A stretch of DNA of 64,000 bases from positions 57,040,001-57,104,000 of the forward strand of contig OZ024746.1 in the NCBI GenBank assembly GCA_964016885.1, read 5' to 3'. Shown in pieces: positions 1,637-62,877 of this stretch. The position numbers and the translations under genes are program-made. The stretch's first letter is position 1. Each line of letters begins with the position of its first letter. The stretch is from Eledone cirrhosa (Eukaryota). Under the pieces are notes generated by a model. The model saw nothing but the letters and a program-made list of their open reading frames with translations, did no database searches and was not told the DNA's origin.

Positions 1637-3218
1637 TAGCTAATTCCATACACCAGAGTATAACTGTAACTATCGACTACCCTTCAAACCACCCTAACAA
1701 TAGACTACCTGTATTAGACACGGAACTCTGGATTAACACTATAGACGAGAAAGACCAAATTCTCCACTCACACTATGCTAAACCCATGGCCTCCAAATAC
1801 CTGATACTCAAAAACTCAGCAATGTCTAGTAGTGCTAAGTTTAATATTCTGATCGCAGATTTGGTACGAGTGATTAAGAATGTCTCCCACATGTGCAACC
1901 CAACAGAAATGGAAAGACACATCCAATACTTCATCAACCGCATGCAGTTCTCTGGCTACAACCAAAGAGACTGAGTCAGAGTATACGAAGGAGCCATGGA
2001 GAAGTATAAGACCCTCTTAGAACTGGACATGAAAGGAATTTTCCCATTATACAGGTGCCAATCATGGAATAGCTTAGATTGGGCTAGACATACGATAGGG
2101 AAAACCACCTCATGGTACGACAAGCAGAGATACCAGAGTGTCATGTTTGTGGACGCTAACCCTGGAGGGAAATTAGCTAACCAGTGTAGAAAGGCCCTGA
2201 GAAAGACCCACTTAAAGATTAAGGTGGTAGAAAAGCCAGGAACCACCATAACATCCCTGATCAGCAAAACCTACCCTTTTAAGAAAACCCAGTGTACTAA
2301 TAGGAAATGTATCATATGTAATGTAAACCCCCGGATAAATTGTAAAAGTAGAAACGTAGTCTATAGCATAATATGTACAGAGGGTATTTGCAGAAACATG
2401 ACAACAACATACATAGGTGAGACAGCTCGTAGCATAGGTGAAAGGATAGACCAACACTGGGGGAAACTAAAATGACGAAAAAAACGGGTCAGTACTATAC
2501 GAACATGCCAGACAACAACACGACGGTAACATAGACAACATAGAAATTGGTATAATATCTAAACATAGAAATGAGCCAGCAGATAGGCAAATCAGAGAGG
2601 CCAGTGAAATAGAACTTAGAAGGCCAAGACTAAACAGAAAGAATGAATAGAATAAAAACAACACCCAAACAAACAACACTGACCTAAGAGAAGTATAAAT
2701 AAATAAATAAATAGATGAATAAATAAATAAATACATACACAAGCACATTTAGAACAAACACATATAAACACACACTAGTAAAGATAGAATACATTAACCA
2801 ATACACAATCACCCAATCACGAACACACATCAAACAAAACACTATACACACGCAAACGCATGCGGAAAGAAGACAAAATAAAATATACAAACAAACAAAT
2901 AAATAAATAAATATATAAACAGACTAAATAAAGATGGCGTAGACATACAATGTAACGGGAGGAAACAATAGCACCACTGACGATGTTGCAGATGTGCAAC
3001 GAAAGACTTTGATAATCTATATATATGTGTTTGTGTCTATATTGTGTCTGTATTATTTTTTACCGTTGGTCAGTTAATGGCAACATTGAGGACCGAATAA
3101 ATTAGATTACCGATATAAAAGACACAGAAGCGAAAAGCGAAAACCAACCAAACAGTGAGTGTGTTCTGTTATTAATTCTGGCAATATTACACAAATATGA
3201 CCCTCCACAAGTATAACT
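1637..3218 (+). mobile_element. Penelope-like element family A, inverted 3' copy (RT thumb, GIY-YIG endonuclease, 3' terminus)
   Basis: ORF 1996..2475 contains CTNRKCIICN..NCKSRNVVYSIIC..YIGETARSIGERI (Cys-rich GIY-YIG), with stops and frameshifts. The terminus atgaccctccacaagtata resembles 15001-15030 and 20533-20560. Confidence 0.9.
2972..3014 (+). ncRNA. hammerhead ribozyme motif (type I, PLE terminus, stem I degraded)
   Basis: ctgacga-t-gttgca gatg tgcaac-gaaa-gact-t. A homologous motif is in the same position of the related PLE at 15139-15181. Confidence 0.6.
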
Positions 3219-4170
3219 ATATATATATATATATATATATATATATAAATATATACACCCTCTTACTCTTTCTGTATTATTGTATGTTTGTATATCCTTC
3301 TCTATATCTATAAATTTGGCTATTTTTCTATCTCAGAAACAGTATCTACTTTCGATCGTTTGATCTTTCCATCTATCAACCAATATGTCAATCGGTTTTG
3401 ACGATGAGCCTTCTATCTGTTCGCTCAACTGAATCTCTGACTCGTTGAATTAATGTATCTGGCAATGTATTCTACAATGAAGTATGTCCTTAAACATATG
3501 CCCAATGTATTTAATAAATACCAAGCTGTAAGTTAACGATGGAGCCGCATTGCTTTTTCCTTCTGAGCATTCGTGGGGTTGTTTTGAAGTATATGAGGCG
3601 TTGGATATATGAATACGTGGATGAGTATTACAAAAAATGTATTTCTTTAACCCAAACCCCGAGCCTAACTTTGCATCCAATTTCAGACTAATTGCCCCAT
3701 TCAAACTGAAACCATAATAAAGACTTTTCCATATATGTCCCGATTACTAAGCGTTCTAATCCATTCACCGATATGTGTGTGAGTCTACATATATTTAGGT
3801 ATATATATTTAGTTATTGGACTATTTTATTTCGGCAAATGCTACGGCAAAGTGCTCTATTTATATTTCAATTAACAAACTTCGCTTACCACTTTCAAAAC
3901 ATATCTCCTTTGTTTACATATCACTATCACCTCAAAGCTCCTTAAATTAATGGAAACACCTACGTGATTTCAATGACGTAAAGGTAGTGTACTCGTCCGT
4001 CAACCGAGAAGTGTATCTTCGATTCCCATGTGTCCTGATACCCATCGTTTTCCATTCAGTGGGTTAATACCCCCTGCTAATTGACTATTTTATATTTTTT
4101 ATATATTCAAATTTTACGCTGCACCCTTCCATTTTTATTTCAATGATCATATATATATATATATATATAA

Positions 4171-4329
4171 AGAGAGAGAGAGAGAGAGAGAGAGAGAGAG
4201 AGAGAGGGAGAGAGAGAGAGAGAGAGGGAGAGAGAGAGAGAGAGAGAGAGAGAGAGAGAGAGAGAGAGAGAGAGAGAGAGAGAGAGAGAGAAAGAGAGAG
4301 AGAGAGAGAGAGAGAGTGAGAGAGAGAGA
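4171..4329. repeat. (GA)n microsatellite (one example of many (TA)n, (CA)n, (GA)n, (GATA)n and (GTAT)n tracts)
   Basis: Read directly from the sequence. Confidence 0.95.
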
Positions 4330-61220: not shown

Positions 61221-61404
61221 GTTTCTACTTTAGGCACAAGGCCAGCAATTAGCCAGCGCATTAATGGTACTTTATTTTATCGACCCCGTAAGGATGAAAT
61301 ATAAAGTTAACCTCGGCGTGATTTGAACTCAGAATGGCAAGGGCCGTAAACCTATGCGTCAAAGCATGGCGTCCGACCCTCTACCAATACTGCCAAGCCT
61401 CCGC
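61221..61404 (-). mobile_element. full-length tRNA-type SINE with 14-bp TSD cctagtatataatt
   Basis: TSD at 61207-61220 and 61405-61418. Family core and head present. Confidence 0.9.
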
Positions 61405-62828
61405 CCTAGTATATAATTATTTCAGATTTGAACTCATCACCAATTTTAACACTGCACCTCAAGGGCCTGCCTTCCACCACTACACCACACTCTGATCCAC
61501 CCTTTCCACTACACAAATTATTCTATCTATAACTTTATAACCTAGAAATATCCCTATAATCACCACCCTTTAATATAATTACTTTTAATTACTTATAATT
61601 ATATAGGGATTGAAATATAATACAGTTTATATAAACTTTAAATATTAGATACAACAATGAATTATACATGCACTTGTAATTAAATGTATAGAGTAATAAC
61701 ATTGGGTATATATAGGATGAATTTATTAACATAGGGGATTTGACTAACCTATATGCAATATGGAACAATGAATTATATATGAATTATATATGCATTTATA
61801 ACTAAATGGATAGATCAATGACATTGTATATGGGGGCTGAATTTTTTTACTCAAGAGTGTATCTAATTGTAGCATGCAAACAGCCGTACGCTGTTCCATA
61901 GCTTACCTAATGTTATGTAAACAAAAATCTAATTGGACATTTAATATGTTTTGAGAGTAGACTCCATTTAGAGTGAATTTGATATAAAGATATAGCATTT
62001 TGAGTTGGAATTCACAATAATAATGAGTAAACAACTTCCTATAGATACATTTAATACATTATGAGAGAGTAGACTGTACGTAAAATTAAATATAAATATA
62101 TAACCTTTCATATAAGAGACTCAACTGAGGCACCATATAATGTATGTTAGAACAATGCATTTAGCTATGAGAATCAGCTAGTTACCTCCCCTTACGTATT
62201 AGCTCTCCTTAATTACATACCAACTTCCGGATAATAAACCGGTGTAAATTCTCTCAGCCGAAAGAATCTATTCTATGAATATGGATTAAATAACACTGAG
62301 CTTCAATACGTTACAATCCTTTACTGCAACAAACAATCAATACGAATACATAGTAACATATGTGATGAATGTGAAAACTATAACTCCCTTTTTCTGGATG
62401 TGAAAATGGTGGTGGATGTGAAAACTATAACTTTCTTTTTCTGCACAGATACTAATTTGATCTATACAAAAATTACCCCCCCCCCCTACTGCAACCGCCA
62501 TAATACTCTTGTTTACCCGCTTAAAGTGCTTGTATTACATGTAATACCTTGCCACACAATACTCTTATATAAATGAGACACATTTGCATGCTCCATGTAT
62601 GACTAACGCATACACTATCTACTAGATCTTATTATTGAACTATTCTCCTGCATATTCTGTGTTATCTGTCACATGTATTTTAATGTTGATTTTAATTTGA
62701 GTTACTATACAAATATAGTATAGTATAATATATGTCGCTGCACACTGTACATCAATATATATATATATATGTATCTGTATGTCTCTTGCGTTGAGTAGGA
62801 GGTCAACTGTATGTACAAACATTAAAAA

Positions 62829-62877
62829 TTGCTCCGAAGGCTCCAAGCCTAGGTTTGGAAGAAACAATTGTAAGTGA
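62829..62877 (+). ncRNA. degenerate hammerhead motif at a PLE-terminus-like end
   Basis: ttgct-ccgaagg-ctccaagc ctag gtttggaa-gaa-acaattgt-a-agtga, then aataaa. The core has two substitutions. The downstream ~50 bp is repeated inverted at 60841-60890. Confidence 0.5.

Follow-up and report, generated by a model that had tools for sequence, protein, structure and literature searches.

The stretch of DNA analysed here, called the window, comprises 64,000 nt of Eledone cirrhosa contig OZ024746.1 (positions 57040001-57104000 in a 3.0-Gb assembly); it is 32% GC and (TA)n-rich, with an assembly gap of 200 N at window positions 20021-20220. It contains hammerhead ribozyme motifs, and the type I topology assigned to them in an earlier reading of the letters (the original prediction) is supported, in that CUGANGA, GAAA and U-H follow in order and stem I is open. 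These motifs are very probably type I hammerhead folds near the 3′ ends of Hydra-type and Neptune-type Penelope-like elements (PLEs) and of retrozymes, with the same reverse transcriptase (RT)-endonuclease likely moving both into (TA)n. The features of the window are listed below, with cores given by position.

1-3218, plus strand: Neptune-type PLE remnant with the sense RT end, the GIY-YIG endonuclease (1609-2475) and the 3′ untranslated region (UTR); an inverted copy precedes, running past the window start
2972-3014, plus strand: hammerhead, core 2977, in the Neptune-type 3′ UTR; stem III one base shorter than that of the inverted twin, stem I weak
8491-8702, minus strand: ~210-nt insertion in (TA)n with a 50-nt inverted tail and a truncated sense copy; core 8583, stem III ATGCGCAT
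8735-8960, minus strand: old short family (~80% identity) with a minimal hammerhead; core 8840, stem III ACGT, damaged stem I
9766-10206, minus strand: inverted arm of the 13278 element, with CTTCAGA at 9959
13270-13408, plus strand: hammerhead, core 13278, with a 104-nt stem II and stem III ACGATCGT; 3′ end of a Hydra-type PLE family
14937-18847, minus strand: Neptune-type PLE remnant whose RT and endonuclease are spread over several frames; 3′ UTR hammerhead with core 15177 (C3G)
19795-19903, plus strand: ~110-nt insertion in (TA)n of a young family; intact core 19818, stem III ACCACTGGT
20913-21353, minus strand: near-monomer of a 465-nt non-coding tandem unit (retrozyme); core 21170, stem III ACTAGT
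31563-31748, plus strand: copy, 5′-truncated and with an inverted head, from a hammerhead family that is abundant and has a long stem III; this copy lacks the first core box, and a second piece lies at 53899-54002
39787-40624, plus strand: 1.3 copies of a 657-nt non-coding tandem unit (retrozyme); core 40272, stem III ACCATGGT
42098-42449, plus strand: young Hydra-type PLE represented by its 5′-truncated 3′ end, plus a short inverted head; core 42239 (intact), stem III ATATATAT
43685-48558, plus strand: Hydra-type PLE remnant in inverted-pair arrangement, with open reading frame (ORF) pieces 44646-46188 on the minus arm
48342-48404, plus strand: hammerhead in the sense 3′ UTR of the 43685-48558 element; intact core 48354, stem III ATATGTAT
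59672-60630, no single strand: head-to-head insertion of a 430-nt non-coding tandem unit (retrozyme); cores 59878(-) and 60322(+), stem III ACTAGT
62829-62879, plus strand: hammerhead-like motif, core CCGAAGG at 62834, stem III ACAATTGT; the element ends in (TA)n at 63049

Hammerhead cores and the palindromic stem III

The first of two descriptors scored the core, stems I-III and palindromy, with thresholds of ≥16 and ≥10; the second left stem III unscored. By the first, six window sites score ≥16 (48354+, 19818+, 42239+, 40272+, 21170- and 8583-) and ten score ≥10, whereas 60 local dinucleotide shuffles of the window gave no site ≥16 (maximum 0) and a mean of 0.43 sites ≥10 (maximum 2). By the second, five window sites stand against a mean of 0.02 over 100 shuffles. 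The type I hammerhead motifs in the window are real and above chance, and the proviso of the original prediction, that shuffled AT-matched sequence should not give a similar density, is borne out.

That prediction counted at least ten motifs in 64 kb from a list of eleven sites. Seven of these score ≥10 (2977+, 8840-, 15177-, 40272+, 42239+, 48354+ and 60322+), and 13278+ is also genuine: its 104-nt stem II lies beyond the limit of the first descriptor, and both stem I and stem II form in its fold (z -4.0). On the other hand, the strong sites 8583-, 19818+ and 21170- had been missed, and the eleven sites represent only nine insertions, several of them decayed, because two pairs are the arms of inverted repeats (9828/13269, 97.5% identity; 59842/60316, 92% identity). 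All nine insertions are members of multi-copy families, as are all 12 independent sites examined. Window repeats were compared by masked self-BLAST; an unmasked repeat search was dominated by (TA)n. Family support for a hammerhead was looked for and not found at the weak candidates 31251 and 35022.

The core is exact at 2977, 8840, 13278, 19818, 21170, 40272, 42239, 48354, 60322 and 59878, the last having a weak stem II. It is altered at 8583, 15177, 9959- (first core box destroyed, CTTCAGA) and 62834+ (two changes, CCGAAGG). The G8A change of 8583 is private to the window copy, with CTGATGA read at 13 of 13 other loci. In a genome sample of 98 evenly spaced 10-kb blocks (980 kb), 87 of the 93 sites scoring ≥12 carry the exact core. 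Stems I and II form the minimum-energy fold in six of ten motifs folded alone, and a compensatory change from A-U to U-A was observed in stem II of the 465-nt unit (21151/21162; public-run contigs).

With the second descriptor, stem III is fully self-complementary at five of five window sites, compared with none of eight shuffle hits, and at 42 of 64 hits in the genome sample, compared with one of six shuffle hits; many of the remaining 22 are Neptune-type motifs or have alternative long pairings. The palindromes vary by family (TATATA, TATGTA, TGCGCA, CCATGG, CTAG, CAATTG, CTAATTAG, CCACTGG and others), and all six that had been named beforehand occur in the sequence. As an isolated element, stem III has a hairpin energy of 0 kcal/mol at all 14 window sites and forms a duplex with a second copy at -1.7 to -11.2 kcal/mol at 11 of the 14; the duplex value of zero at 62834 is uninformative, as a shorter register was scored. 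According to these predicted energies, the palindromic stem III fits dimer-dependent cleavage, which agrees with the earlier suggestion that it favours dimers. PLE hammerheads are said, in the primary report, to cleave as dimers.

Penelope-like elements, retrozymes and their insertion anatomy

Five of the nine insertions are identified by their motifs and flanking sequence as PLE 3′ ends, of which 13278/9959, 42239 and 48354 are Hydra-type and 2977 and 15177 are Neptune-type. Family members were collected in 10 DNA searches that returned ~40 or more matches each, with 276-4899 first-look candidates, figures that are lower bounds and not copy numbers. At locus L153, two repeats enclose an 856-amino-acid ORF frame and the 42239 hammerhead is carried; the frame contains DKT (HADKT), a CxCx5C linker (CNCRNPESC) and GIY-YIG, and RWK (MRWK) lies in an upstream frame. 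At L257, an unbroken 834-amino-acid ORF with HPDKT, VRWR and CNCRNKANC lies upstream of the 13278 hammerhead. A single ORF carrying RT plus a GIY-YIG domain at its C terminus, as expected for PLEs, can thus be read from the motifs at L257 and L153, whereas the remnants in the window are broken. The partial tandem arrangement (pseudo-long terminal repeat, pLTR), the inverted 5′-truncated copy and the optional tail of PLEs were all observed. Within the window, RT/GIY-YIG remnants are found upstream of the 2977, 15177 and 48354 motifs, the last of which recurs at L159 and L160 at a spacing of 3.8-4.8 kb around ORFs. Moreover, four of five long loci with paired hits, picked from the commonest exact pattern, hold Hydra-type ORF remnants.

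The Neptune-type linker CTNRKCIIC (CX2-5CxxC before the endonuclease) is found in window 1975-2475, and the Neptune-type RT has no significant likeness to the Hydra-type ORF. The inverted arm of the 1-3218 element has its hammerhead just upstream of the window (L156). The claimed diversity is upheld, the 83 sampled sites falling into 27 sequence clusters. Within the window, the Neptune-type elements whose 3′ UTRs carry 2977 and 15177 are 67% alike, and two pairs are inverted copies. The closest named relative of a window ORF is an Octopus vulgaris protein (63% identity), and an Argonauta hians protein is present among the relatives of another element. A further Hydra-type endonuclease remnant at 43245-43640(-), 41% identical to that of the neighbouring element, is followed by a short tandem duplication, and no hammerhead was found downstream of it. 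At L272, two same-strand hammerheads (764 and 5633(-)) are 4.87 kb apart, with no PLE ORF between them by the probes used.

The families of 21170 (465 nt), 40272 (657 nt) and 60322/59878 (430 nt) are classed, by unit structure, as retrozymes without long terminal repeats (non-LTR retrozymes). Their longest ATG ORFs are 68, 48 and 58 amino acids, respectively, and the predicted circular folds have z values of -10.7, -3.4 and -10.4. The link that had been drawn to PLE termini and retrozymes is sustained by the five PLE ends and these three ORF-less tandem families. The statement that several elements have no ORF holds for the three units, but not for 42239 and 13278, which are 5′-truncated ends of protein-coding PLEs. 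Copies of the 465-nt unit are dispersed and 99% identical; this unit matches the 430-nt one at 67% over 214 nt. A homologue of the 657-nt unit at 13713-14304 and a piece at 4332-4470 contain no recognisable motif.

Hammerheads one unit apart, two or more in number, occur at 7 of 14 (465-nt), 2 of 17 (657-nt) and 5 of 13 (430-nt) loci, counts that leave out the window copy and loci overlapping the same array (5, 2 and 0 dropped). At L158:1-6560, 13 hammerheads lie in an array of 465-nt units, 10 on one strand and 3 head-to-head; a five-unit variant pattern is repeated, and the array adjoins a truncated Hydra-type ORF of another family. This ORF was rejected as a part of the 465-nt unit: it begins in the middle of RT after a TA junction, and its own 3′ UTR has another hammerhead. 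Rolling synthesis of the arrays from a single circle is not supported, because the units differ within arrays and the five-unit pattern repeats.

The three tandem families share an insertion anatomy. An inverted head is present at 11 of 14 (465-nt), 4 of 17 (657-nt) and 6 of 13 (430-nt) loci, and (TA)n follows 18 of 20, 22 of 22 and 14 of 19 3′ ends, respectively. These 3′ ends are bimodal, lying at two fixed unit positions, and two alternative 3′ ends are also seen in four of seven other families. Within 300 nt downstream, (TA)n occurs at 92% of the 83 sampled sites compared with 21% of random positions, and it lies within 352 nt at all 14 window sites. Inverted truncated copies, tails and the (TA)n preference of the Hydra clade have been described for PLEs (PMC8557442), and the PLE tail reflects two RT start sites (PMC11167929). 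From this shared anatomy, we infer that the retrozymes use PLE enzymes.

The mechanism that we propose would begin with the endonuclease nicking TA-rich DNA and RT starting 3′ of the ribozyme, at either of two fixed sites, with frequent truncation and inversion during insertion. Because most copies would be 5′-truncated, the ribozyme-bearing short end would accumulate to ~10^5 copies and ORFs would be rare. The palindromic stem III would be unable to close as a hairpin in one copy and would pair with a second copy; since this pairing would need the second copy, cleavage would be on in tandem transcripts and off in single copies. Tandem cleavage would release unit-length RNA, which may be circularised in the case of retrozymes; the templates of the inserted cDNA are likely RNAs that are uncleaved, multimeric or circular, and the majority of copies in the genome are probably inert fossils.

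Several results weigh against this interpretation or against the motifs themselves. Pfam detected RVT_1 in only 2 of 16 window ORFs and no domain in the L153 ORF or in any of four PLE proteins, and the clade labels are a reading of motifs, not of a tree. When the 2.5 kb upstream of the 83 sampled sites were probed, an ORF remnant was detected at only 5, although heavy 5′ truncation predicts such scarcity. The earlier description of the elements as self-cleaving is not supported in that form, many copies being decayed or single with no partner in cis, and the hammerhead is not the minimum-energy fold for 40272, 60322, 2977 and 62834, four of the ten motifs folded alone. The Neptune-type stem III (AGAACT) is an unclean palindrome and gives no duplex. 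In Rfam, the only hammerhead among the best 150 of 387 window matches is HH9 at 21118-21188(-), with 32.5 bits against a gathering score of 52, in a scan dominated by microRNA models matching microsatellites. Finally, comparison of the three retrozyme units and the 8583, 8840, 19818 and 62834 elements with six autonomous elements revealed no homology beyond microsatellite and one nested insertion, and a donor PLE for the retrozymes and short elements was not found among these six.

Genome-wide density and comparison with known systems

The sampled blocks contain 61 sites ≥16 (none in four shuffles) and 93 sites ≥12 (shuffle mean 2), and the first 400 kb alone has a lower rate, with 10 sites. 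An exact pattern (core, 18-36 nt, GAAA-TATRTA-TA) occurs 79,584 times in the genome compared with 118 for a reversed control. Its 34 matches in the sample extrapolate to 104,000, which is 1.3-fold too high; calibrated by this factor, the sample gives ~143,000 sites ≥16 and ~213,000 sites ≥12, as against 186,000 uncalibrated (95% interval ~116,000-269,000). Inverted twins are doubled in these counts, and long-stem and variant-core families are missed. The data suggest a genome total of 1.4-2.1 × 10^5 motifs, at least ~80,000. The description of the motifs as dense is accordingly true of the genome, whereas the window is unexceptional (P of its count or more, 0.26-0.29 from the 98 blocks); it is ordinary for its genome, and the density is a genome-wide property.

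For comparison, 126,247 motifs have been counted in axolotl and ~5,000 in mussel (PMC7229834); the axolotl genome is 28.21 Gb, and retrozymes have been argued to derive from PLEs (bioRxiv 10.64898/2026.07.22.740005). A literature search that covered few subscription papers revealed no cephalopod hammerhead census, and the supplements of PMC8557442, PMC4209133 and bioRxiv 10.64898/2026.07.22.740005 may list cephalopod families. In the O. vulgaris repeat paper (PMC13282606), 893 recently active unclassified SINE (short interspersed element) families are reported, and the words 'ribozyme' and 'hammerhead' do not occur in its main text. A joint reading, which we offer tentatively and at slightly less than even confidence, is that this genome is the densest animal hammerhead carrier yet counted (at least 26/Mb, probably 50-70, vs ~4.5/Mb in axolotl), driven by a radiation of Hydra-clade PLEs in (TA)n; that young retrozymes would be written by a PLE enzyme as head-to-head multi-unit arrays from multimeric or circular RNA; that cleavage may be dispensable for copying; and that many 'unclassified SINEs' of octopus libraries are possibly ribozyme-bearing PLE ends.

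PLE hammerheads and retrozymes are already published; the elements described here are new members of both kinds, at a density above the published counts compared. In PMC4209133, dimer-type hammerheads derived from truncated PLEs were described in their thousands; they are diverse and for the most part single, and pairs on opposite strands and a U3-A8 core are among them. The present motifs resemble those metazoan pLTR hammerheads in being type I, diverse within a genome, mostly single from truncated PLEs and palindromic in helix III, and also in the opposite-strand pairs 100-700 bp apart, the extra base before stem II and the U3-A8 variant. They differ in the longer palindromes (up to 8-11 nt) and the stems II of up to ~100 nt, and in number, with ~9,000 in X. 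tropicalis and ~4,000 in coelacanth there and at least ~79,500 for one pattern here, a loose comparison because the descriptors differ.

Like the non-LTR retrozymes of PMC7229834 and bioRxiv 10.64898/2026.07.22.740005, the units described here are non-coding tandem units of low GC with one type I hammerhead each, strongly self-paired predicted circles and co-occurring PLEs. Their length is 430-657 nt, compared with 170-400 nt in PMC7229834 and 51-972 bp in bioRxiv 10.64898/2026.07.22.740005. They are known from DNA alone, their circles being predicted, when set beside the retrozymes of PMC7229834, and their link to PLEs is insertion anatomy, that in bioRxiv 10.64898/2026.07.22.740005 being pLTR homology and co-occurrence. 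The Hydra-type elements share with the Hydra clade (PMC8557442) a C-terminal GIY-YIG, DKT, RWK/RWR, the CxCx5C linker, CxxC and CxH by the conserved E and N, a canonical hammerhead and (TA)n insertion. Unlike that clade, which is generally <3 kb with few families (PMC8557442), they have ORFs of 834-856 amino acids, long 3′ UTRs, lengths of ~4-5 kb and very high copy number. The Neptune-type elements have the C-terminal GIY-YIG after a CX4CxxC linker, the DKSG motif and the pLTR hammerhead of the Neptune clade; this assignment is set by motifs and not separated from Nematis by a tree, and stem III is a short imperfect palindrome. As in the green anole Poseidon PLE (PMC11167929), the target is AT-rich, two RT start sites (proposed for the present elements) give a tail, and genomic copies do not end at the ribozyme cut; the anole element is biochemically tested with tails of 30-40 bp (PMC11167929), whereas the present evidence is sequence-only and the tails are ~55-135 nt.

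The role of PLE hammerheads and the mobility route of retrozymes are open questions in the field. The young families of this genome, whose copies are nearly identical (98-99%), its unbroken Hydra-type ORF, its retrozymes with a PLE insertion signature and its natural core variants (U4C, U3-A8) are material that would allow tests of dimer-dependent cleavage, of the weight of cleavage in insertion and of PLE-retrozyme pairing. Some 10^5 potential cleavage or RNA-pairing motifs could affect host transcripts, and repeat annotation should change accordingly.

Alternative explanations and further families

It is possible, if unlikely, that the fold persists chiefly because it serves the PLE protein as a binding or packaging signal, with cleavage being weak, protein-assisted or dispensable. 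A pile-up of copy 5′ ends at the predicted cut, as expected if cleavage sets these ends, was looked for in seven families and not seen; no end falls on the first base after the cut, the nearest being at -2, +5 and +5, where the ends are approximate BLAST limits and the three tandem families were inspected by eye only. The 62834 family has spread to 40 copies or more, 93-96% identical (3375 candidates), despite U4C in 10 of 10 loci (L262-L271). U4C considerably lowers activity in vitro but still supports viroid infectivity (PMC3088659), and catalytic mutants of the anole PLE insert normally, its cleavage needing protein (PMC11167929). The absent 5′ ends and the fixed U4C therefore temper the role of cleavage, in line with the anole element. 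Against a mere signal, the exact catalytic boxes and U-H are kept over 27 unrelated clusters and at the large majority of sampled sites ≥12, and the stem III palindromes vary in sequence and remain self-complementary. The signal hypothesis is compatible with hammerhead-bearing PLE and retrozyme ends, touching only the role of cleavage.

An origin of the tandem units by unequal crossover, which would have expanded stranded PLE ends into satellites on the spot without mobilisation as RNA, appears improbable. Such a model is discussed in bioRxiv 10.64898/2026.07.22.740005, and the five-unit pattern of L158 and the unit differences within arrays are as DNA-level duplication gives. However, the arrays are short, often head-to-head and located on many chromosomes at 99% identity; they end at two fixed unit positions and adjoin (TA)n, and a private variant is common to both arms at L161. 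Domestication of some motifs as host regulatory ribozymes is very improbable: high copy number permits occasional co-option, but no support was found, all 12 independent sites examined are repeat families, the window copies show private decay (G8A, C3G, CTTCAGA), and no host gene was recognised in the window. Chance matching in AT-rich sequence, to which the single sub-threshold Rfam hammerhead and the unsupported 31251 and 35022 might point, is already refuted for the strong sites by the shuffle and reversed-pattern controls.

A parent element was looked for and not found for the short ends at 8583, 8840, 19818 and 62834. The junction between the inverted tail and the truncated sense copy of the 8583 form, which lies at a shared short GATA, is the same in 14 of 14 loci (L111-L124) comprising several sub-haplotypes, and this suggests a recurrent template switch. 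The form was considered as a SINE with its own fixed start and rejected, the first 50 nt being the inverted tail; sense copies of this family often begin 124 nt before the predicted cut. A sister family of 62834, found at L098, shows the standard core together with a perfect stem I. The 31563-31748/53899-54002 family is very abundant, with a 6-bp stem III and the core TTGAGAA (U3-A8 variant) or CTGAGAA; it also occurs at L048, L088, L097, L105 and L113 (51 anchor matches over all loci; 8 copies in 400 kb), and truncation or inversion within stem II affects many of its copies. A separate canonical family at L001-L010, absent from the window, has stem III ACATTGT and scores above the Rfam Hammerhead_1 cut-off. 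Genome-wide, 74 of 415,510 candidates were scored with RF00163; 18 matches exceeded the cut-off, and none of those listed lies in the window.

A ~195-nt dispersed repeat, probably a SINE and with no hammerhead seen in it, is present in at least six places at 82-94% likeness (20230-20374, 23414-23510, 28231-28465, 35814-36008, 38946-39140 and 61213-61407). An RT remnant in inverted arrangement at 32789-33586 (Pfam RVT_1, below the cut-off) resembles an RTE-type long interspersed element (LINE).

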